64,000 nt of DNA from an uncultured Clostridia bacterium (GTDB lineage Bacteria; Bacillota; Clostridia; TANB77; CAG-465). This document shows, one piece after another, positions 1,984 through 18,767 of this stretch. Below the pieces are notes generated by a model that was not told the origin of the DNA, did no database searches, and saw nothing but the letters and a program-made list of their open reading frames with translations. Location of the stretch: assembly GCA_947630145.1 (NCBI GenBank), contig CANRGL010000002.1:8437-72436 (forward strand), written 5' to 3'. A program made the translations under genes and the position numbers. The stretch's first letter is position 1; the number at the start of each line of letters is the position of its first letter.

Positions 1984-3035
1984 CTATTTTAAACCACTTT
2001 ATTTACTTAACCAAGTAGCAATATCAACTATATCTATTCCTTCATATTGATAAGTATCATGTTTTGTTCTTGCTATTACTACTTTTGGATACGCATCTTG
2101 TATCTTTAATAAAGAGTCTATTTCTCTTTTGAATGTATTCTCATTACTTATATCATCAGATACTTGTATATAAATTTTTTTGCCTTATTTTTGTGCTACA
2201 AAGTCTATTTCTTTTTTATATAAAGTACCTACATAAACTTCATAGTCTCTTCTTAATAATTCTATGGCAACAATATTTTCAGAAATTCTACCATAATTCA
2301 TATTGCTTGTACCTAGCATTGCATATCTAAAAGATTGATCTGCTAATAATATTTGTTTTGTGTACTCAATAATTTCTTGCCTTTTATATCGTATCTTTTA
2401 ACTTTATAGAAAGCAAAAGAATTACACAAATACTCTATATAATTATTGATTGTTTTATCTGTTATACTAACATTGTTTGAATTTAAAACATGTGCAATAT
2501 TATTAGCAGATGTTAAATTTGAAACATTATCCATTAAGAAGTCTGTTAAATTTTGAATTATATCTGTATTTCTTATTTTATATTTTTGATTTATATCTCT
2601 AATTATTAAAATATTAAATACATCTTTTATATACTGATACTTTTCTTCTTGTGTTTTATACAGATATGAACCAGACATTCCACCTTCATATACATATTTG
2701 TCAAAAGCTTCTTGTAAATTATTTTACTCATAATATTTTTGAAATTCCTTAAATGAAAATGGATATACTTCTACTTTAAAAGTTCTACCTGTAAATAATG
2801 TTGATAAATCACTACTCATTAAGAATGCATTAGATCCAGTTATATAAATATCATATTTTTCTTCTGCATGAAATCCATTTATTGCTTTTTCAAAACCTTC
2901 ACACATTTACACTTCATCAATTAATATGAAATTTTCAACTCCTTCTTTATAGTTTGATTCAACATATTCTACTAAAGCATTATAATTTTTTAAATTTTCA
3001 AATTTTGGTAAATTATAATTTATATGAATAATATT
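1984..3035 (-). pseudogene. Decayed AAA ATPase (AAA_14/DUF4143 type): 5'-truncated with nonsense and frameshift lesions
   Basis: Fragments 2906-2724, 2678-2343 and 2330-1984 are colinear with the intact paralog at 31249-32547. Walker B 'ILIDEV' is followed by TAA where Q is expected; 'QK*GKK' is a nonsense codon; the Walker A region is missing. Confidence 0.75.
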
Positions 3036-3084
3036 ATTCCTATTCCGAAAAATCAAGTTTTTTTCTTTTTTTCGGAATAGGAAT
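3036..3084. repeat. Perfect 17-bp-stem hairpin at the truncation point of the ATPase pseudogene
   Basis: 'attcctattccgaaaaa' (3036-3052) pairs with 'tttttcggaataggaat' (3068-3084), followed by TTTT. Confidence 0.8.
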
Positions 3085-3139
3085 TTTTAATTCTGTTATT
3101 ATTTCTGTATTTCAACCATTATTTTTTTAAGGTTATTAT

Positions 3140-3590
3140 CATTTTTGATACCACACTTTTTTAATATCCTTACTATTTATATTTTTAGGAGTCCTAATAC
3201 CTTCTTGTCCTCCAAAAAAGGGAATTGCATATACTATTGTATATTGACAAATTAATGTATTCTTATAATTCCATTCAATAAATTCAATTAATTTCTCTTT
3301 ATTGGTTTTATTGCTTTTATATATGCTAGCTAAAGCTAGCTTTTCACATTCATGTATTCACTGGTGTTAATCTTTATATGAAAAATTAATATTTCTATTA
3401 TAATTCTTTATTTTTGTAATTTTAGGAATTTCTTTATTTTCACTATATAAAACATTTTTCCAAATCATTGATGGATAATCTTCTATAATCGTTAAAAATC
3501 TATTTAGTTCTTGATTAATAATTCTCTTATCTTTTTTAGTTGAGTAATATTCTTTTAAAGCAAAGCCTAAACTTATCTGAAATTGATTAT
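3140..3590 (-). pseudogene. Remnant of an unidentified gene with in-frame stops
   Basis: The minus-strand frame reads ...KEYYSTKKDKRIINQELNRFLTIIEDYPSMIWKN...NFSYKD*HQ*IHECEKLALASIYKSNKTNKEKLIEFIEWNYKN... with TAA and TGA stops 9 nt apart. Confidence 0.3.
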
Positions 3591-3721
3591 CCTACAATAT
3601 AGAATTATAAGAGAAATTACAATCATACTATTATTATCCCTTAATATTCCATTTGTAGTATATTCATTTAAATATGAAACGATGTTTCTGTCAAATATAA
3701 CAAACTTATTTTTATTATTTA

Positions 3722-4663
3722 TTATAACATATCTTTTTTCTTAAGGATAAATGTGATAATAGCAGTTACAAGTATTGAAATTATTATTATGCTATAAAAG
3801 CCTAGCGTACCTGTATTAAATGGAAATTGTACATTCATACCTAAAAAACTTGCTATCATTGTTGGTATAGATATAACAAGAGTAATAGAAGTAAGCCATT
3901 TCATAACAGTATTTAAATTATTTGATACTATAGTACCAAACATATCGACAATACCATTTAATATTTCACTATATGTCTGAATCATTTCTATTGCCTGTCT
4001 ATTTTCTATAAGTGTATCTTCAAGAATATCTTCATCTTCTTCATATAATGGCAGCACTTTTCCTTTTTTTAATTTTTCTAATACTACTTGATTTCCTTTT
4101 ACAGAAGCATTAAAATATACCATCGTTTTTTCAAATGTAACCATCTTTAATAATTCCTTATTATCCATTGTTTTTAACATCTGATTTTCAAATTTATCTA
4201 AGTCTCTATTTATATATGTAAGATATCTTATATAATCTTGTGCTATACTGTACAATATCTGGAAAGTAAATCTTGATTTTTTTTCTGTTTGCACACCAAA
4301 TTTATTTTCACTTAAAACTTTATATACAGAATTAATTCTAACTTGAGATATGGTTATAAATATTTCATCTCTTACTATTATCATACCAAGTGGCATTGTA
4401 GTATAAATTTTTTGATTATCTTTCATTTCTGTTGCAGGTGAGTCAACAATTATTAATATTGAATCATCTTCCATATCAATATGGGCCTTTTCAGCTATAT
4501 CAAGAGGATATCTAAGTAAGTGTTCTTTTATTCTTACTGATCTACTAATTTTCCTTATTTCATTATCCGTAGGGGAAACCATATTTATCCAACAACCTTT
4601 CACAGGTTTTTCAATTTTATTAAAATTTCTAGATTTTTGATCTGTTATATATATATCTACCAT
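3722..4663 (-). CDS. corA: CorA-family Mg2+/Co2+ transporter
   Basis: 313 aa with two C-terminal TM helices and the GMN signature ('FLGMNVQFPF'). Confidence 0.9.
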   Translation of the reverse strand: MVDIYITDQKSRNFNKIEKPVKGCWINMVSPTDNEIRKISRSVRIKEHLLRYPLDIAEKAHIDMEDDSILIIVDSPATEMKDNQKIYTTMPLGMIIVRDEIFITISQVRINSVYKVLSENKFGVQTEKKSRFTFQILYSIAQDYIRYLTYINRDLDKFENQMLKTMDNKELLKMVTFEKTMVYFNASVKGNQVVLEKLKKGKVLPLYEEDEDILEDTLIENRQAIEMIQTYSEILNGIVDMFGTIVSNNLNTVMKWLTSITLVISIPTMIASFLGMNVQFPFNTGTLGFYSIIIISILVTAIITFILKKKDML

Positions 4664-6129: not shown

Positions 6130-6695
6130 TTTGCCTCCCCAAGTGAAAATTTATGTTCTCCAATTGTTGCTACAACTGGAAGTGAGAATAACCATTTACT
6201 TTTTGTTTTAGATGGGTTATAAAAATAAAGTGCACCATTAGTGGGATCAGAACCATTCATAGCATCTTGTGCCGCTTTATATACAGTTGAATTTTCTTCT
6301 ATAGGTGCATTAAATTGACCATCTTTTATACATGAAAACTGATCTTTTTGATAAATTACACCAGCAATAGTATTTGGAAATTTTGAGCTTTTTACTCTAT
6401 TCATTATAACAGCACCTACTGCAACTTGCCCTTCATATGGTTCACCTCTTGCTTCTCCATTTATCAATCTAGCAAGTAGTTTTACCATATCATCTCCACT
6501 AGGAGTATTTGTACTTGTTGAACTTTCTTCTTGTTTTTTACCATCCATATCTGATATAACGCTTATTATACTATTACTTATATACTTTTTAAAATCAGAA
6601 AAATTAAATGAAGCATATAACAAAAAAGTAAGTAAGATTATTGATGCTAAAAAAAGTACATGTTCTCTTTTAATTTGCATAATTTTTACCTCCAA
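6126..6695 (-). CDS. sleB: Spore cortex-lytic enzyme, SleB/CwlJ (Hydrolase_2) family
   Basis: 'ARLINGEARGEPYEGQVAVGAVIMNRV...FPNTIAGVIYQKDQFS' matches the Hydrolase_2 core. Signal/TM N-terminus; paired with ypeB. Confidence 0.8.
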   Translation of the reverse strand: MEVKIMQIKREHVLFLASIILLTFLLYASFNFSDFKKYISNSIISVISDMDGKKQEESSTSTNTPSGDDMVKLLARLINGEARGEPYEGQVAVGAVIMNRVKSSKFPNTIAGVIYQKDQFSCIKDGQFNAPIEENSTVYKAAQDAMNGSDPTNGALYFYNPSKTKSKWLFSLPVVATIGEHKFSLGEAK

Positions 6696-6752
6696 ATAAA
6701 AATTAGTATTATTTTCTGCAAAATTAAAATTAAATATGCACTTAATTTATTT

Positions 6753-7004
6753 TTAAAAAATATAATGTATAACAATTAATGCTAAAACACCAGGAATTCC
6801 TAATGTTCCAGATATAACAGCAGTTACTATATTAAATGGAATGTGAAGTCCAATATTTTCTCCAAATATATTAGTAATAATTATTAAAATAATACCTATA
6901 GCTATGTTAATTAGTAACTTTAATATTTTTTTAAAAGGCCAAGAAAATATTTTTGCAACTATAATAACAGCTATAACACATAGACAAAATATAACATATT
7001 GCAT
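6753..7004 (-). CDS. bofA: Pro-sigma-K processing inhibitor BofA
   Basis: Small 2-TM protein ending '...NIVTAVISGTLGIPGVLALIVIHYIF', like B. subtilis BofA. The start at MQYV follows a GGGGGT RBS. Confidence 0.75.
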   Translation of the reverse strand: MQYVIFCLCVIAVIIVAKIFSWPFKKILKLLINIAIGIILIIITNIFGENIGLHIPFNIVTAVISGTLGIPGVLALIVIHYIF

Positions 7005-7112
7005 AATATATACCCCCATATAATAATACATTATACTTGTCTAATATTATTTTTATGCTAAATATTTTTTAATTTTGATTAGTGGAATTTTTAACTTTAA
7101 TAAAGTATAAAA

Positions 7113-7136
7113 AATCGAAGTGAATATTCACTTCGA
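7113..7136. terminator. Bidirectional terminator hairpin
   Basis: Palindrome 'tcgaagtgaatattcacttcga' flanked by A-run and T-run. Confidence 0.7.
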
Positions 7137-7155
7137 AATTTTTTACATTTTAAGA

Positions 7156-7548
7156 TTATGCTTGTGGTCCTTGATATTCAGCACTTCCAAATGCAAGTAT
7201 ACATTCAAATATGAAAGATAGGAATACAAGTCCTACAGCAAATCCACCGCCTTTACCAAATGCTTTTGCAAGTTTAATGTTCATTAATACTGCAACAACG
7301 ATATTAGCAATTGGAACTAATAATAGTAATACCATCCAAGGTGATAAACCAACTATCTTAAATAATGTTATTATATTATATATTGGTATTATTGATTTCC
7401 ATCCTGCTTCTCCAGCTTTTGTAAATATTTTAAACATAGCAATAATTGATATTATAGCAATTATAATAGTAGTTACAAGATAACTTATGCTAAATTCAAA
7501 TGAATTAGCTGATGAAGATAAGACTTCAGTATAAACATTATTATACAT
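7156..7548 (-). CDS. DUF5684-like small membrane protein
   Basis: 'FKIFTKAGEAGWKSIIPIYNIITLFKIVGLSPWMVLLLLVP' is the pattern typical of that family (from memory). Confidence 0.6.
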   Translation of the reverse strand: MYNNVYTEVLSSSANSFEFSISYLVTTIIIAIISIIAMFKIFTKAGEAGWKSIIPIYNIITLFKIVGLSPWMVLLLLVPIANIVVAVLMNIKLAKAFGKGGGFAVGLVFLSFIFECILAFGSAEYQGPQA

Positions 7549-7734
7549 ATTATATTCACCTCCTCTTAAAGAAAAATAATTAATACAAAATATAGAATAC
7601 TAAATTCTATGTTATTATTATACAATTAATTAAAAAAATTGTCAAATTTTATTTTTTTGTAAATATTTTATATATTCTATCATATAATTTATTAAATAAA
7701 ATTTTTAAATACTTACAATTGGAGGTAATTTATT

Positions 7735-8082
7735 ATGATTGGTGAAACTTATCAATTAGAAAATGGTTTTTGGATTTATTCTAAAGGGACACTTTTTGAT
7801 CTAGGACTTAACGATGATTTAATTGTGGCTGACTGCTCAAATTTTTCATATGTATCTGGTTCATTAATAATAACAAAAAAGGAAAATGTTATAACCATAA
7901 TATCTTCTACACCAATAGATGATGGAAATACAAAAAAGCCTAACATTCTTGCTGAATTTTCCAATTCTAATACAAATATTTTTGCAAACGTTATTATTAA
8001 AAATATCTGCTATACAATTGATTATAACTGTCAGATCACAGCATGTCCTGCACATAAAGTCATTCATCCAAAAATAAACTAA
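7735..8082 (+). CDS. Hypothetical protein (115 aa)
   Basis: GGAGG RBS, and a terminator hairpin ('atagagttca'/'tgaactctat') at about 8086-8122. Confidence 0.5.
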   Translation: MIGETYQLENGFWIYSKGTLFDLGLNDDLIVADCSNFSYVSGSLIITKKENVITIISSTPIDDGNTKKPNILAEFSNSNTNIFANVIIKNICYTIDYNCQITACPAHKVIHPKIN

Positions 8083-8141
8083 GAAAAAATAGAGTTCATT
8101 TTAAAAAGTGAACTCTATTTCTATTTTCATTACTATTTTTA

Positions 8142-9392
8142 TTATAATATTCTAATTATATCTTTATATGTAACAAATATGGTCAGTAGTATTAATAATC
8201 CCATTCCTATATATGAAATTATCGCTTCTACATTTTCTGATACTTTTTTTCTAGTAATAGTTTCAAATAATACAATTACAACTTTTCCTCCATCAAGAGG
8301 TGGAAAAGGCATAATATTTGCCACTCCTACAGCAAGCGATATTATGGCCATAAGGTTTAAGAAACTTATTATTCCATTTGTCTTAGAAACAACTTCTCCT
8401 ATTCCTACTATACCAGACATATCATTTATTCCAACTTTACCTCTGAACAAATCAACATATGAACCAATTATTCTTGAAACATCATTTACCATATTCAAAA
8501 TAGCATATTTTAAATTTGTATCTACTATTTGTGTACTTGCTATACCTAAATCAAAATTTTCTTTTTCTTTAGGTGTAATATTTATAGTTGTAGTCTCATT
8601 TTTTCTTTCATAAGTCAATTTCATTTCTTTATTTGCATTTTCACGTATTATAGATATAACTTCTGCAGAAGTATTTGTTTTTACATCATTTATACTTACA
8701 ATTTTATCTCCAGCTTTAATTCCTGCTTCAACTGCAGAGCCTCCTCCTGATACCATATCAATTTCATTAGTAGGATTACCTTCATCATCTATTTTAAATA
8801 CTACACCTATATTACCAATTTTTGTTACTGCATTATCTAATTCTACTTCTTTTGTATTCCCATTATGGATATATTCAATTTTTACTTTTTGGCCATAACT
8901 TACATTTTGATTTGTAAGATCATCAAATATTAAAGTTTTTTTACCATTTATAGATACTATTTCATCTCCTACTTCAAGTCCTGCATTTTGTAATACAGAA
9001 TTAGGTGAAAATTCTGTTATTTTTGTTGTAGCAGTTTTATATGAAAATGCAATACTTAAAAATATTGCTATTGCAAGGATTGCATTCATAACTACACCTG
9101 CAACCAAAATTAATATTTTTTTATACCAACTAATTTTAGCAAATGAGTGTTCACTGTCAGTATTTCCGTCTTCTCCTTCTATTGCACAATACCCACCAAG
9201 TGGTATACATCTTAAAGAATACATTGTTCCTTTAAATTGTTTTTGAAATATTTTAGGTCCAAATCCAATAGCAAATTCATTTACTTGAACCTTAAATAGT
9301 TTAGATATAATAAAATGTCCAAATTCATGTATTGTTGCAACAACACATATTATTATTAATAATTTTATAATAGTAATTAAAAAAGTTAACAA
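8142..9392 (-). CDS. rseP: RIP site-2 zinc metalloprotease RseP/RasP
   Basis: HEFGH motif in TM1, central PDZ region and C-terminal TM helices; follows cdsA. Confidence 0.9.
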   Translation of the reverse strand: MLTFLITIIKLLIIICVVATIHEFGHFIISKLFKVQVNEFAIGFGPKIFQKQFKGTMYSLRCIPLGGYCAIEGEDGNTDSEHSFAKISWYKKILILVAGVVMNAILAIAIFLSIAFSYKTATTKITEFSPNSVLQNAGLEVGDEIVSINGKKTLIFDDLTNQNVSYGQKVKIEYIHNGNTKEVELDNAVTKIGNIGVVFKIDDEGNPTNEIDMVSGGGSAVEAGIKAGDKIVSINDVKTNTSAEVISIIRENANKEMKLTYERKNETTTINITPKEKENFDLGIASTQIVDTNLKYAILNMVNDVSRIIGSYVDLFRGKVGINDMSGIVGIGEVVSKTNGIISFLNLMAIISLAVGVANIMPFPPLDGGKVVIVLFETITRKKVSENVEAIISYIGMGLLILLTIFVTYKDIIRIL

Positions 9393-13172: not shown

Positions 13173-13739
13173 TTATTTGTATATAGCCTGATATAATAAT
13201 TTCACTATTTCTTCATGGTCATTTTTTAATGCAAGTCTCATAGCATAATTATTATTAGATGAGGGATCTACTCTTTCATCCTTAAGTAGCAATTTTACTA
13301 CTTCCGTATGACCGTATGCTGAGGCATACCTTATAGCATAATTATAATCTGCTGAAGGATCGACTCTTCTATCTTGCAAAAGCAATTTTACCACTTCTAC
13401 ATGACCATTTGCTGAGGCATAACTTATAGCATAATTATCTTTATCTGACGGATCTACTCTCTTGTCTTGCAAAAGCAATTTTACCACTTCTGTATGACCA
13501 TTTGATGATGCAATCCTTATAGCATAATTATTATCTACTGAAGGATCTACTCTTTCATCTTTAAGTAGCAATTTTACTACTTCTGTATGGCCACATGTTG
13601 AGGCCAACTCTATAGCAGAATTATTATCTATTGAAGGATCTACCCTTTTATCTTTCAAAAGTAATTGTACTACTTCTATATGACCATTTTCTGATGCATA
13701 CTGTATAGCAAAATTATTAGTTGCTGATGGTTTCAGCAA
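13173..13739 (-). pseudogene. Ankyrin-repeat protein, apparently 5'-truncated
   Basis: 5+ tandem 33-aa ANK units ('D..AI..AS..GHTEVVKLLL.D.RVDPS'). The ORF opens mid-repeat at a TTG with no RBS. A terminator hairpin lies at about 13112-13141. Confidence 0.6.
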
Positions 13740-13779
13740 ACTTGAATGTATAGAATGTGAAATAGGAGATATTAAAGAA

Positions 13780-14094
13780 ATGTTATGGTATATATATGAA
13801 GATTATTATACATTAATTAATGAAGATATATATACAAAAGCTAATCATTACGATAGATTAGGAACATATTTATTAAATATGCATTCTTTATTATTATCAA
13901 AACCAAAAGAAATAAATGAGTTTATAGAAGCTGTTTATAAAGAACGAAAAGCAAGAAATAATGAAAATTCAAAAGAGACAGAAAATAAATCGATAGAAAC
14001 AACTATATTTTATAATGAAGAAAAAAATGAATTCCAAAGAATACCAGTATATAATAGTATAAAGATGGTAGATGGAAAAATAATATATAGTTAG
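13780..14094 (+). CDS. Hypothetical protein (104 aa)
   Basis: ORF with an AGGAG RBS; no family recognised. Confidence 0.45.
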   Translation: MLWYIYEDYYTLINEDIYTKANHYDRLGTYLLNMHSLLLSKPKEINEFIEAVYKERKARNNENSKETENKSIETTIFYNEEKNEFQRIPVYNSIKMVDGKIIYS

Positions 14095-14287
14095 TATTCA
14101 AATTTATATCGAATATACATAGTAGTAGTTTATATTAAAAATAAAAAATATAATTATAGAAGCAAAAAATTTATAACAAGGTCAACTATTGATTTTTATA
14201 GTTAATCGCAAAAATAAATATTAGCAGAAATGCTGATATTTATTTTGTATAATTTTATAAATTTTAAGCATATTATATAGTATGATA

Positions 14288-14333
14288 TTTTTTATGCAAA
14301 AAACTTGCATAAAAAATTAATAAATGGTATAAT
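14288..14333 (+). promoter_or_regulatory. Promoter with extended -10, overlapped by a 12-bp-arm inverted repeat
   Basis: TTGCAT (14305-14310), 17-nt spacer, TGgTATAAT (14325-14333). The IR 'ttttttatgcaa'/'ttgcataaaaaa' (14288-14316) covers the -35. Confidence 0.55.
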
Positions 14334-14359
14334 ATAGAAAATGTTAGGAGGAATTTGTT

Positions 14360-15613
14360 ATGATAACAAGTTTTAGATTTGAAAATTGTTTTGCTTTTGA
14401 TAAGCAAGTAGAGATGGCTTTAAGAGCAGATATGAGGACAAAAAGATTTTCTTCAAATGTTTCAAATATAAATAAAAATATTAATGTATTAAAATCTGTT
14501 GCTATATATGGGCCTAATAATACTGGAAAAACAAGCTTTATAAATTGTATAAGAGCAATAAAAAGAACTTTACAAAATAGAAAAATAATGCTAAATGCTA
14601 ATATATTTACAAATAGTCCAATTTGTTATGAGTCTATTTCTTTTGTTTTTGAAGGCAAAGAATATTGTTATGAATATAAATTTGATTGTAATCAGCGTTC
14701 ATATATATATGAGAAAATGGCTGAAATAACAAGAGATCAGCATAAAAATAAAGGTGAAAATGTAATTTTTATAAAAGATACGATAAATGAACATTATGAA
14801 TGTCCATCGGACTTAAATTTACAAAATGTTTTAAATATAGCTTCTACAAATAATATTCTTATATATACAGTACAAATTGAAAAATTTGAAATTTTGCAAA
14901 AAATAAAAGAAATATTAACAAGTGTTGCTAGTAGTATAGAAATTGTTGATATGAATCATATTCCTAATTCAAAGACTATAGAAATGCTAAAAAATAGAAG
15001 TATGGAAACTAAAAAAATAGTTGACTTTATTAAGAATGCAGATATATATCTAGAGGACTATAGATATGAAGAAGATATACAATTTGAAATTGATGGAAAA
15101 GAAGCTGATGAAAAAGTTTTAAAAAATCAAAATTTTGTAGATCAAATAAAATTAGTTTCAGTTTACAAAGGGAAAGCAGTTCCTAGTATTATTTTTGATT
15201 CTTTAGGAACAAGAAAAATAGCAGCACTTGCTAGTTATGTAATAACAGCTATTGAAGAAGGAAAAACATTAATTGTTGATGAGTTAGACAGTAGCTTACA
15301 TTTTAAAATTACAAGAGCAATAATAAGTATGTTTAACAATGATATAAATAAAAATGCTCAATTAATTGCTACATTACATGACATTAGCTTATTAGATTGT
15401 AAAAAAATGTTTAGGAAAGAGCAAATTTGGTTTACAGATAAGAACGATAATGGAACAGAATTATATTCATTAAGAGAATTTAGCTATGATCAAGCAGGTG
15501 TTAGAGATACTACAGATATACAAGATAGATATAGCAAGGGAGCTTTTGGAGCTATACCAGATCCAGATTTAATTTCTACACTATTGGAGGTTGATATAGA
15601 TGAGAAAGTATAG
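14360..15613 (+). CDS. ABC-type AAA ATPase (AAA_15/AAA_21, COG1106-like), AbiLi/AriA-like
   Basis: Walker A 'GPNNTGKTS', Walker B 'LIVDELDSSLH', 'ATLHD', and C-terminal 'RYSKGAFGAIP'. Confidence 0.8.
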   Translation: MITSFRFENCFAFDKQVEMALRADMRTKRFSSNVSNINKNINVLKSVAIYGPNNTGKTSFINCIRAIKRTLQNRKIMLNANIFTNSPICYESISFVFEGKEYCYEYKFDCNQRSYIYEKMAEITRDQHKNKGENVIFIKDTINEHYECPSDLNLQNVLNIASTNNILIYTVQIEKFEILQKIKEILTSVASSIEIVDMNHIPNSKTIEMLKNRSMETKKIVDFIKNADIYLEDYRYEEDIQFEIDGKEADEKVLKNQNFVDQIKLVSVYKGKAVPSIIFDSLGTRKIAALASYVITAIEEGKTLIVDELDSSLHFKITRAIISMFNNDINKNAQLIATLHDISLLDCKKMFRKEQIWFTDKNDNGTELYSLREFSYDQAGVRDTTDIQDRYSKGAFGAIPDPDLISTLLEVDIDEKV

Positions 15614-16208
15614 TGGCAAGAAAATTTGTATTATCTGTGAAGGGTATGAGGAATTAGATTATATTGAAGCATTAAAAAATAAAGCTGTTTTTTCAAACAA
15701 GTATGATTTTATAACGGTTAATGCTAAGTCAATAAACACTATTATTGCAAGATATCAAGAAAAATACCAATCAGATTCATTTTCATTAGTATTAATATTT
15801 TGCGATACAGATAAAGGACCATCTGAAAAGTATAAGAAAATAAAACAAAAAATAAATGAATTTCATGAAGCAGATGTTGCAGATGACATTATTATATTTG
15901 GTAATCCGTGTACAATGCAAATCATACTTTCACATTTTGCAGAAATAAAATTAACTAGCCAAAGCAAGTCTGTAAATGCTAAATATATAAAAGAACTAAC
16001 AGGAATACAAAGTTACAAAGCAACAGATAAACAAAGAAAAGAATTATTTAGCAAAATCAAAAGAGAAAATTATGATGTAATGAAAGAAAATGTAAAAAAC
16101 TTATCTACAAATGATGAAGAACTATCTAGCACCAACATTTTAAGGTTTATTGAGAAATTTGAGAGTGATGATGATAGTTGGATAGATGAAATAAATAAAA
16201 ATTTATAA
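15600..16208 (+). CDS. RloB-domain (TOPRIM-like) protein, AbiLii-like partner
   Basis: N-terminal 'ICIICEGYEELDYIEAL' resembles the RloB 'CEGxxTExxY' motif. 14-nt overlap with the ATPase gene; GGAGG RBS. Confidence 0.65.
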   Translation: MRKYSGKKICIICEGYEELDYIEALKNKAVFSNKYDFITVNAKSINTIIARYQEKYQSDSFSLVLIFCDTDKGPSEKYKKIKQKINEFHEADVADDIIIFGNPCTMQIILSHFAEIKLTSQSKSVNAKYIKELTGIQSYKATDKQRKELFSKIKRENYDVMKENVKNLSTNDEELSSTNILRFIEKFESDDDSWIDEINKNL

Positions 16209-16280
16209 TTAAATTTTTATTATAAAATAGTATTTAGCAATATATATAAGTATATATTTTAATAAAATATAAGGAAGGAG

Positions 16281-16407
16281 ATGAAAAGTATACAAAAACA
16301 AAGACTAGTAACTCAGGAAAACAGAAAAAAAGATAGTACCTGTAAATGGATACACTAAAAAAGATGAAACAAAAGTAAAATATCATCGCAGATCAACACT
16401 AAATTAA
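16281..16407 (+). pseudogene. Small ORF frameshifted in an A7 run
   Basis: MKSIQKQRLVTQENRKK... shifts frame at A7 (16325-16331) into ...IVPVNGYTKKDETKVKYHRRSTLN*. Confidence 0.3.
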
Positions 16408-16670
16408 AGTGAAGTAGTTCCAAAGTTTAATAACTTTAGAGATTATTTTATCACTATTGTATTATATAAATAAATCTTATTATAACTTAAAAAATGAAAA
16501 ATTTTATAAAATACCTGATGTAAATGTTAAAATAAAACTGATAGAAAAATTCAAAATAAAATTGATAAAATTCTATCAGTTTTTTGATGTAAAATTTAGT
16601 ATAATTAATATATCTTTTCTTAAAAAAAAGATATATTAATGTAAGGGGTGGTAATTAAAGAGATATTTAA

Positions 16671-16850
16671 CATATTTCATTTCATGATTTAATAATACGA
16701 TTAAAGAAAGCACATAGTGAAAATAGATTAGAACAAAGATTAAAACAATTTTGCAAATATAGATTATTAATAATAGATGAAATTGGTTATTTACCAGTAG
16801 ATAGAGATGGAGCAAATTTAGTTATTATTAAGTCATTTAAATATTCATAG
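16671..16850 (+). pseudogene. IS21-family IstB helper ATPase fragment
   Basis: 'HDLIIRLKKAHSENRLEQRLKQFCKYRLLIIDEIGYLPVDRDGANL' is the IstB Walker B region. There is no N-terminus, no IstA and no IS ends. Confidence 0.6.
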
Positions 16851-17006
16851 GATCACCTTAATTATAATATATCATAAAAGAAAATAATTATTTTGTAGAA
16901 ATATAAAAATAGAGTGAATTCTATTTCCACTCTATTTAACAATATAATTTATAATTTTTTAAATATATTTATATTTCTCATAATATATTTTTCCTATTTA
17001 TATATT

Positions 17007-18767
17007 CTAATTTTTCACGTATACTTCTTGTTTATTATACTTTGTATGTAATAATTTATGTGCTTTTTTACCATTTGGTTCTTCTAAAAATTCTTTATAT
17101 AATTTTTTTACTTCTGGATTTTCATGTGATTTTCTATACTTTGCATTTTTATCTGCCTTATATAAAGCTTTTGCACGTAATTTTTTATAATCTACTTTAC
17201 TTGCTACAATATCACTTACAAGTGGTTGACCTCCTCCATTTATACAACCACCAGGACAAGTCATTACTTCAATAAAGCTATATTTTGATTTTCCTTCTTT
17301 TATTTCATCCATAAGCTTAGATACATTTGCAAGGCCTTGTGCTACTGCAATTGTATGTGTTTTTCCTTGTATATCTATTTTTGCTTCTTTTATTCCTTTA
17401 AATCCACGTACAGATTTAAATTCAACATTTTTTATTTCTGTTTTATCTAATAAATAAGATACACTACGAAGTGCTGCTTCCATTACTCCACCAGTTGTTC
17501 CAAATATATGTCCTGCACCAGTAGCTACTCCTAATGGACTATCATAATCTTCTTCATCAAGAGTTTTCAAATCAATATTTGCCTCTTTTAAAAGTCTTGC
17601 CATTTCTCTTACTGTAACTACATTATCAACAGCTTTTATACCATTTTCAAGTTTTAATTCATCTCTTAATATTTCTGCTTTTTTAGCAGAACATGGCATA
17701 AGTGCAACAGAGTAAATATCTTTTGGATTAATATTTTCTTTTTTAGCATAATATGTTTTTATAAGTGTACCCAAAATTTCCATAGGTGATTTTGTTGTAG
17801 ATAAGTGATTTAATAATTCTGGATAGAACTTTTCTGCATAAGTAATCCATCCACTACTACAAGAAGTAATCATTGGTAGATTTCTATTATTCTTTAATCT
17901 TTCAATAAATTCTGTAGCTTCTTCCATTATAGTTATATCAGCACCAAGATCAGTATCAAACACTTTGTCAAATCCAAGTTTTTTAAGTGATGCTACAAGT
18001 TTTCCTGTAACTAAAGTACCAATATCCATTCCAAATTCTTCACCAATTGTAGCACGTGTCGCAGGAGCAGTTTGTATTACAACGTGTTTTTTAGGATCAT
18101 TTAATGCTTCTTTTAATTCTTTTACATTACTCTTTTCAGTTAATGCTCCTACTGGACAATGAATTACGCATTGACCACATCCGACACATGTAGAATCTTT
18201 CATTTTCATATCAAGTGCAACACCTACTCTTGAATTAAAACCTCTATTCATATTACCAATTGCTGCAACACCTTGAACTTTACTACATATATTAACACAC
18301 CTTTTGCACAAAATACATTTAGCTGTGTTTCTAACTATACATGCTGAAGAATCATCAAATTGTGTTTCTGGCATATCTCCTTCATAGTCTAAATCTTCAA
18401 TTCCAAACTTTTTAACTAAATCTTGCAATTTACAATTTGTGTTTCTTATACAAGTAAGGCATTTTTTCTCATGTGATGAAAGTAAAAGTTGTAAAATAGT
18501 ACGTTTAGTATCAAGTAATTCTTTAGTATTTGTTCTTACTACCATACCATCTTCTGCAGGATATACACATGATGCCTTATATCCTCTAACTCCTTCTATT
18601 TCTACTAAACACATTCTACAATTTCCTACCTCATTTATGTCCTTTAGAAAGCATAGTGTTGGTATATCAATATTTAATTTTCTTGCTGCCTCTAGAATAG
18701 TTGTTCCTTTATCTACTTCTACTTTTTTACCATCTATAGTTAACTGTATTCTTTCTTTCTTTAACAT
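17007..18767 (-). CDS. hydA: [FeFe]-hydrogenase catalytic subunit (HydABC/Hnd type)
   Basis: N-terminal 2Fe-2S and multiple 4Fe-4S Cys motifs. H-cluster motifs 'MPCSAKKAE' and 'EVMTCPGGCINGGGQP'. Motif 1 reads 'TSCSSGW'. Confidence 0.9.
   Translation of the reverse strand: MLKKERIQLTIDGKKVEVDKGTTILEAARKLNIDIPTLCFLKDINEVGNCRMCLVEIEGVRGYKASCVYPAEDGMVVRTNTKELLDTKRTILQLLLSSHEKKCLTCIRNTNCKLQDLVKKFGIEDLDYEGDMPETQFDDSSACIVRNTAKCILCKRCVNICSKVQGVAAIGNMNRGFNSRVGVALDMKMKDSTCVGCGQCVIHCPVGALTEKSNVKELKEALNDPKKHVVIQTAPATRATIGEEFGMDIGTLVTGKLVASLKKLGFDKVFDTDLGADITIMEEATEFIERLKNNRNLPMITSCSSGWITYAEKFYPELLNHLSTTKSPMEILGTLIKTYYAKKENINPKDIYSVALMPCSAKKAEILRDELKLENGIKAVDNVVTVREMARLLKEANIDLKTLDEEDYDSPLGVATGAGHIFGTTGGVMEAALRSVSYLLDKTEIKNVEFKSVRGFKGIKEAKIDIQGKTHTIAVAQGLANVSKLMDEIKEGKSKYSFIEVMTCPGGCINGGGQPLVSDIVASKVDYKKLRAKALYKADKNAKYRKSHENPEVKKLYKEFLEEPNGKKAHKLLHTKYNKQEVYVKN

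Follow-up and report, generated by a model that had tools for sequence, protein, structure and literature searches.

A predicted AbiL-family ATPase and RloB/Toprim gene pair with a conserved promoter block in an uncultured Clostridia bacterium

Gene pairs encoding an AbiL-type ATPase and an RloB protein are among the commonest predicted defence modules, and to our knowledge none of them has a worked-out mechanism. AbiL, which consists of AbiLi and AbiLii, was reportedly described by Deng et al. in 1999 from Lactococcus lactis pND861, and RloA/RloB are said to have been described by Miller et al. in 2005 in Campylobacter type I restriction-modification (R-M) loci. Here, we present the analysis of one such pair, an ATPase gene followed by an RloB-like gene, which is located on a 64,000-nucleotide (nt) stretch (positions 8,437 to 72,436 of contig CANRGL010000002.1, assembly GCA_947630145.1; in the following referred to as the window) of a Clostridia metagenome-assembled genome (1.24 Mb, about 25% G+C, 88% complete). 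AbiL has been grouped with PARIS, OLD and Gabija as systems that combine an ABC ATPase with a Toprim protein (PMC11464382, PMC13064643, PMC12065111), in agreement with the parallel to PARIS and OLD/Gabija that had been drawn in the initial annotation of the window. In PARIS, AriB is sequestered by oligomers of AriA, from which it is set free as a tRNA nuclease once a phage protein is sensed (PMC11464382), both PARIS and lactococcal AbiL confer phage resistance (PMC13064643, PMC11464382), and pairs of AAA and TOPRIM_OLD proteins were found by Ernits et al. to behave as toxin-neutraliser pairs in E. coli (PMC10440598). Judged from its sequence, the locus described here appears to be an intact two-gene module of the AbiL kind and of anti-phage type, in which a Rad50-like ATPase is combined with a small RloB/Toprim nuclease-like protein. 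Our preferred reading, to which we assign a probability of about 0.72, is that of a self-contained and horizontally mobile AbiL-family module, in which an AbiLi-type ATPase is coupled to an RloB/AbiLii-type Toprim protein, which is expressed from a promoter carried by the cassette, and which would act against phages by abortive infection.

The ATPase of 417 amino acids (aa) contains the stretches GPNNTGKTS and LIVDELDSSLH and, close to its C terminus, RYSKGAFGAIP, and its open reading frame (ORF) overlaps by 14 nt (15600-15613) with that of the 202-aa RloB-like protein, which starts with MRKYSGKKICIICEGYEELDYIE; the coordinates and motifs on which the pair had been recognised are thus all present (Table 1). 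A Shine-Dalgarno sequence, AGGAGG, is located at 14346-14351, 8 nt 5' of the ATG of the ATPase gene, and a second one, GGAGG, at 15586-15590, within the end of the ATPase gene and 9 nt 5' of the ATG of its partner. Among the PADLOC models, the ATPase is best matched by that of AbiLi, PDLC02335 (E-value 4.7e-67, 224 bits, residues 1-403); AriA ranks second with a weaker match (9e-22), the GajA model reaches only 3.5e-4, and Pfam AAA_21 matches at 1.9e-20. An alignment of 55 homologues reveals that the Walker A motif (G51-x4-G56-K57-T58), the ABC signature (S281-x-G283-T284-x-K286), D307-E308 of the Walker B motif with the catalytic glutamate and the H-loop (H340) are all invariant; in the protein itself, the signature reads D280-S-x-G-T-x-K286 and the Walker B motif D307-E-L-D310. 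The AlphaFold model has a predicted local distance difference test (pLDDT) score of 81, and its fold matches the heads of Rad50, SMC and PtuA with E-values of 1e-11 to 1e-8, those of Rad50 at 9e-12. The protein is an ABC ATPase of the Rad50-SMC type; the initial label of an AAA-ATPase was loose. The last 43 residues (375-417; window 15482-15610) are predicted to be disordered (pLDDT 40-51), and six positions of this tail, Y391, G394, G397, A398, P400 and P402, are invariant in the same 55 homologues. Since disorder in combination with invariant residues is the pattern typical of docking peptides, it might be speculated that the C-terminal tail RYSKGAFGAIPDPDL is a candidate peptide for docking to the partner or for oligomerisation. 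Searching the sequences of the PDB with the ATPase, or with the profile of the RloB family, yielded nothing meaningful.

The assignment of the 202-aa protein draws on profiles, conserved residues and a structural model. The Pfam RloB profile PF13707 matches it at 32.2 bits, marginally above the gathering cut-off of 31.5, although over profile positions 1-194 of 195, and a precomputed PF13707 match is missing from most of the 120 listed homologues. PADLOC AbiLii (PDLC02337) gives a weak match of 3.6e-8, and neither DUF4435 nor AriB was found among the Pfam and PADLOC profiles. Of the families proposed at the outset for a hidden Markov model comparison, AAA_21 was hence recovered for the ATPase and RloB, marginally, for its partner, but not DUF4435. 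The family is large, with 317 clusters at 50% identity in a library-wide HMMER search. When 71 full-length members are aligned, E14, G15 and E17 occur in every sequence, as does either Glu or Asp at position 18 (E18 in the protein itself), and Y139 is invariant; D69 is present in 70 of the 71 and an acidic residue at position 71 (D/E71) in 65, while P103, H112, K123 and N179 are nearly invariant. In the protein studied here, these residues form part of the conserved stretches D69-T-D71, NPCTMQIxLSHF with H112, and S-T-N179. The AlphaFold model (pLDDT 95.6) comprises four beta-alpha units in Toprim order followed by a helical C-terminal half, with E14 placed directly after strand 1 (residues 8-13) and D69-x-D71 where strand 3 (63-69) ends. 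A glutamate after strand 1 together with a DxD motif after strand 3 is the Toprim signature that has been described for RloB (PMC12065111). The best fold match in BFVD is a phage 'RloB-like protein' (template modelling (TM) score 0.60, E-value 2e-7), and the best one in the PDB is the Toprim-containing C-terminal region of the OLD protein of B. pseudomallei, 6nk8 (probability 0.96, E-value 8.8e-3, TM 0.40), which is a weak match. In the order of its secondary structure elements, the model fits the three-layer alpha/beta Toprim fold with its four-stranded parallel sheet. Taken together, profile search, model and fold search support an RloB/Toprim-like fold for the 202-aa protein with the predicted catalytic glutamate and DxD retained. 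The resemblance that had first been noticed at its N terminus is thus upheld, and the absence of such a fold, which had been named as the finding that would speak against it, was not observed.

Based on these sequence relationships, the pair very probably belongs to the AbiL/RloB family, and the two PADLOC matches to AbiLi and AbiLii agree with the AbiL assignment made initially. Like AbiL, the locus consists of an ABC ATPase gene of about 410 codons followed by an overlapping or abutting gene for an RloB/Toprim protein of about 200 aa, it is recognised by the same PADLOC models, and it has the residues EG..E, the Asp of DxD, LxH, Y(D/K) and (P/S)xTN in common with that system. Similarly, alignment of the profile of the gut family to the 192-aa partner in a gene pair of the Lactococcus prophage proPhi7 by hhalign gave a probability of 93% (E-value 2.6e-7) over the full length; this pair (ORF55/ORF56, MN534320) is annotated as 'abortive phage resistance protein' and matches the same two PADLOC models. 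The differences are that the ATPase is less than 35% identical by tblastn, that the gut cassette is chromosomal in Clostridia and Lachnospiraceae and carries a conserved promoter block, and that the second half of the Toprim site is altered. When compared to five canonical RloB proteins, the gut clade shares EG..E, D(x)D, LxH, Y and TN; however, the glutamate of the canonical 'N(P/R)xxE-W' motif (NPCFE-W) is replaced by Met or Leu, an invariant glutamate, E17, occupies the position of a canonical Thr, and K123 is specific to the clade. With the canonical glutamate lost and the additional E17 invariant, the chemistry of the clade may differ. The sequences of this gut-Firmicute clade thus appear to represent a divergent but very common AbiL subfamily, in which the latter half of the Toprim site is altered in a clade-specific manner.

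PARIS of E. coli (PDB 8ux9) resembles the locus in that an ABC ATPase of the AAA_15/21 group, here with the match to the AriA model, is combined with a separate Toprim effector. In contrast, the partner encoded here is of the RloB type and not DUF4435/AriB (AriB ranks 31st in the fold search, with a TM score of 0.26), and the ATPase is shorter, with the heads of Rad50 and PtuA as the closest solved folds. Thus, at most, the locus works like PARIS, and it is not a member of that system. With OLD proteins (P2 Old and the class 2 OLD of B. pseudomallei, 6nk8) and GajA, the RloB-like protein has in common the Toprim core, a glutamate after strand 1, a second glutamate nearby and DxD, but in those proteins ATPase and Toprim domain are fused and not encoded by two ORFs, and the fold match is weak.

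That the two genes belong together is indicated by their distribution. In a collection of species-representative genomes, relatives of the 202-aa protein are encoded in 174 stretches, from which 80 loci were retained; their hosts comprise gut Clostridia, Lachnospiraceae, Eubacterium, Coprococcus, Roseburia and Holdemanella from rabbit, mouse, human and ruminant sources. Cultured strains are among them, for instance Eubacterium uniforme ATCC 35992 and Lachnospira hominis NSJ-43. In 79 of these loci, the RloB-like gene is immediately preceded by an ATPase homologue in the same orientation, and the remaining one is truncated by the end of its contig. Across the loci, the identity of the one protein goes along with that of the other, and the gene overlap or a short gap is conserved. 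The linkage of the two genes, over about 80 species, is obligatory and their translation is coupled. Among relatives of the source genome the pair is patchily distributed: the ATPase has any match in 13 out of 40 relatives and a close homologue in only two (82% and 66% identical), in both of which the RloB gene is broken. Towards loci of 84-97% identity, DNA homology begins at about 14193-14246 and, in five out of seven such loci, extends precisely to the RloB stop codon at 16208, and the flanks are unrelated; the mobile unit is therefore a cassette of about 2 kb which comprises the promoter and the two genes. A tblastn search with the 202-aa protein against 72,556 plasmids returned no match, and the plasmid and phage matches of the ATPase, with which alone the phage collection was searched, all remain below 36% identity. 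Elsewhere, the nearest neighbours of the cassette, mostly co-oriented with it, are Thoeris, OLD, retron reverse transcriptase, MADS and Pycsar cyclase genes as well as integrases. These cassettes sit in the usual setting of defence islands, often beside other defence genes.

The last observation bears on whether the pair might act mainly as a selfish toxin-antitoxin cassette, with the Toprim protein as toxin and the ATPase as antitoxin, which would be maintained by post-segregational killing or hitch-hiking and would have no real role against phages. The behaviour of the AAA and TOPRIM_OLD pairs as toxin-neutraliser pairs (PMC10440598) would be in line with such an addiction module, as would a compact, self-promoted cassette that is found in unrelated contexts. 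In addition, the RloB ORF is interrupted in eight loci with an intact ATPase gene and the reverse is seen in two; that the putative effector gene is broken more often than that of the ATPase lends mild support to a costly effector. However, the homologous cassettes adjoin Thoeris, OLD, retron and Pycsar genes, and phage resistance is what lactococcal AbiL and PARIS confer (PMC13064643, PMC11464382). Thus, we consider a purely selfish function unlikely; addiction and anti-phage roles are, moreover, compatible with each other. The flanking genes also argue on a second alternative, according to which the pair would be an RloA/RloB-type accessory of a type I R-M system and not independent. RloB received its name from type I R-M loci, one plasmid relative, in C. 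taeniosporum pCt2, lies between hsdM and hsdS, and the RloA/RloB pairs of Campylobacter and the plasmid or phage pairs annotated as 'ATP-binding protein + RloB family protein' have the same domains, gene order and overlap. But those RloB proteins are longer (220-250 aa), with a basic N-terminal extension and the canonical glutamate, whereas the pair in the window is not linked to hsd genes, none of which were found in the 5 kb to its left or right; the 80 loci do not have R-M genes as frequent neighbours, and the cassette boundaries enclose only the two genes. A role as R-M accessory is hence highly improbable.

For the AbiL-family module favoured here, a mode of action may be proposed from related systems. 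By analogy to PARIS and to the AAA and TOPRIM_OLD pairs, the most likely role of the ATPase is to sense infection and to keep the Toprim protein in check. An oligomer of the ATPase would hold the Toprim protein in an inactive state and would respond to a phage-derived trigger; upon infection, the effector would be released or activated and would cut nucleic acid, possibly tRNA or another RNA as in the PARIS precedent, by which translation would be halted and the infection aborted. We regard the odds of such a PARIS-like mechanism as roughly even. Several points weigh against our interpretation of the locus as a whole. The scores of the RloB-like protein against the RloB and AbiLii profiles are weak, and so is its Foldseek match to the PDB, and the canonical glutamate is missing from the gut clade. 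In two loci (L044 and L061) the ATPase is disrupted while the RloB gene is apparently intact, which, unless these are assembly errors, does not fit an ATPase that acts as a strictly essential antitoxin. In the window itself, the neighbouring genes are housekeeping genes and do not form a defence island. Finally, a 2026 review of lactococcal Abi systems regards it as undetermined whether AbiL and RloAB act like PARIS (PMC13064643).

The locus is ordinary for the AbiL class, except for its own promoter block, which is more strongly conserved than the two proteins. This conserved block is the result that goes beyond routine annotation, and it is new here. An extended -10 promoter with its -35 element inside a perfect inverted repeat had been proposed initially; TTGCAT, a 17-nt spacer and TGgTATAAT are indeed read at this position, and the repeat is perfect as stated, though its arms are 13 nt long and not 12. 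On the single sequence, promoter and repeat are weak, since in this region, with a G+C content of about 20%, the number of promoter-like matches does not exceed that in shuffled sequences (31 versus 33.2) and inverted repeats are abundant (21 in 3.3 kb). The promoter was not listed by a consensus scanner because TTGCAT matches the -35 consensus at three of six positions. It is taken as more than a chance match because it is conserved across loci, as determined for 68 homologous loci. In almost every one of these, the 13-mer of the right arm, TTGCATAAAAAAT, is located 51-95 nt 5' of the ATPase start, with an exact copy in 50 and at most one mismatch in 63. Two controls, for which the pattern was either reversed or searched for 3' of the operon, gave 0-1 matches and no exact copy. 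Exact copies are also present in 30 of the 40 loci in which the ATPase is less than 60% identical, and they occur even where the proteins share only about 50% identity. A -10-like hexamer follows TTGCAT after 16-18 nt in 65 loci, in 56 of them with the TG extension, and upstream TATTTTTT-R-TG-M-AAAAA is conserved as well, beyond which the sequences are unrelated. Judged by this conservation, the promoter is part of the cassette and under selection, that is, real in an evolutionary sense.

It might further be hypothesized that the inverted repeat is an operator, at which either the ATPase-RloB complex, as in the autoregulation of type II toxin-antitoxin systems, or a host factor would act as repressor. 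The perfect palindrome with its 13-nt arms covers the -35 element, the conservation of TATTTTTTRTGMAAAAA..TTGCATAAAAAAT goes far beyond what a -35 hexamer would require, including a spacer A-tract of at least 90% per column even with loci of about 48% protein identity, and the block is unique in the genome and hence specific to the cassette: a 30-nt pattern of it, with up to three mismatches allowed, occurs at this locus only. A site for a global host regulator was rejected on this account. However, the perfect palindrome is found only in some close relatives. While the right arm is nearly invariant, the left arm drifts, with changes (A to G, C to A) that are not compensated in the right arm; the arms differ at 0-2 positions in close relatives and at 1-6 in the distant clade. 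Being one-sided, the changes do not support an RNA or DNA structure maintained by compensation either. In addition, no recognisable DNA-binding domain was found in either protein by profile search, and three T/A tracts at distances of about 10-12 nt, approximately one helical turn, would fit a bent, strong promoter of the UP-element type. In the close clade, the left arm also doubles as the -35 element of a possible divergent promoter, and the symmetry could then be accounted for with no repressor involved. We therefore put the operator forward tentatively, as possible though doubtful. The putative divergent promoter on the minus strand (14272-14300; TTTGCA, 17 nt and TATAAT, the latter at 14272-14277) has 10 of 12 matches and is retained in loci from about 62% protein identity upwards. 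About 20 nt downstream of it, an AT-rich hairpin is located at the left edge of the cassette (Table 1), into which its transcription would run; the promoter could give rise to a very short transcript or to none. The hairpin looks like a bidirectional terminator which insulates the cassette from the 104-aa ORF further upstream.

If a rebuilt Toprim site, with the NPCFE-W glutamate lost and E17 and K123 gained, and an operator in the promoter palindrome were combined, the gut-Firmicute clade would be a functionally distinct AbiL variant, regulated by itself or by a host factor, from Clostridia to Lachnospiraceae, and the locus would be a three-part, self-regulating abortive-infection cassette; we consider this rather unlikely. 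For the genome studied here, the result is a routine annotation, that of one accessory defence cassette between housekeeping genes. As the gut clade is abundant, the cassette comprises 2 kb and the model of the effector is very confident, it is a convenient test case for the question of whether AbiL acts like PARIS, and the conserved promoter block provides a handle for studying the expression of the cassette after transfer between distant hosts.

Table 1. Features of the cassette and their positions in the window.
Feature	Position	Strand	Details
AT-rich hairpin	14211-14246		arms of 16 nt with 94% complementarity around a 4-nt loop; at the left cassette edge; RNA folding energy -10.9 kcal/mol (z -3.07)
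Perfect inverted repeat	14287-14317		ATTTTTTATGCAA-aaaac-TTGCATAAAAAAT; 13-nt arms 14287-14299 and 14305-14317, 5-nt loop; -35 of the operon promoter in the right arm, -35 of a possible divergent promoter in the left arm (minus strand)
Putative sigma-A promoter	14305-14333	+	-35 TTGCAT 14305-14310, 17-nt spacer, TG 14325-14326, -10 TATAAT 14328-14333
AbiLi-type ABC ATPase, 417 aa	14360-15613	+	profiles, motifs, fold model
RloB/AbiLii-type Toprim protein, 202 aa	15600-16208	+	profiles, conserved residues, fold model

Between 8142 and 21566, the window contains rseP, cdsA, frr, a topoisomerase gene and an ankyrin-repeat gene on one side of the cassette and hydABC on the other. The cassette itself lies in a small islet between these housekeeping blocks, together with the ankyrin gene, a 104-aa ORF, a frameshifted mini-ORF and an IstB fragment. 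Downstream of hydA in five genomes of the same genus, no topoisomerase, frr or ankyrin gene is found, and synteny is thus not conserved there. An Rfam search of 13700-17050 returned no family. The debris in the islet raises the question of whether this copy is a silent or decaying remnant, as would also be suggested by the broken RloB genes in the two closest species-level relatives. However, both ORFs are of full length and have every conserved motif, and no damage is seen in the promoter, the two Shine-Dalgarno sites or the overlap, rendering decay quite improbable for this copy. The elements in question are two. At 16281-16407 (+), just 3' of the cassette, a run of A residues separates a small basic ORF, MKSIQKQRLVTQENRKK…, from its continuation in a different frame (…IVPVNGYTKKDETKVKYHRRSTLN), and the ORF looks like a frameshifted mini-gene. 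At 16671-16850 (+), a stretch of 59 codons (…LLIIDEIGYLPVDRDGANL…) matches the IstB ATPase of the insertion sequence (IS) IS21 (Pfam IstB_IS21, 1.1e-11, profile positions 126-176 of 238); neither a start codon nor IstA nor IS ends were found with it, and the fragment is mobile-element debris at the right edge of the islet.

On the left side of the islet, the ankyrin-repeat ORF (13173-13739, minus strand) opens at a TTG and looks truncated at its 5' end. The 104-aa orphan ORF at 13780-14094 (+) has no Pfam match and is common only to the 97%-identical locus of the closest relative (L011); on these grounds it was rejected as a third component of the system. Homology to L011 begins at position 13730 of the window, just where the ankyrin ORF ends. 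In another relative (G027, locus L003, 628-1498 on the minus strand), the RloB homologue is truncated to 83 aa, and repeat-like sequence precedes the unrelated ORF (about 107-158 aa) that comes next; an insertion may have destroyed the effector gene there. A description of this ORF as ToxN/AbiQ-like was withdrawn, as it has no Pfam match. In L011, a distant AAA_21 ATPase (29% identical) is encoded upstream of the cassette at 2818-4029 and a 616-aa OLD/GajA-like ATPase-Toprim protein immediately downstream at 6639-8486; with these two as flanking genes, the same cassette resides in a defence island in that genome. About 3 kb beyond the OLD/GajA-like gene, L011 contains serine-recombinase genes that are related to the window at 33.8-35.7 kb.

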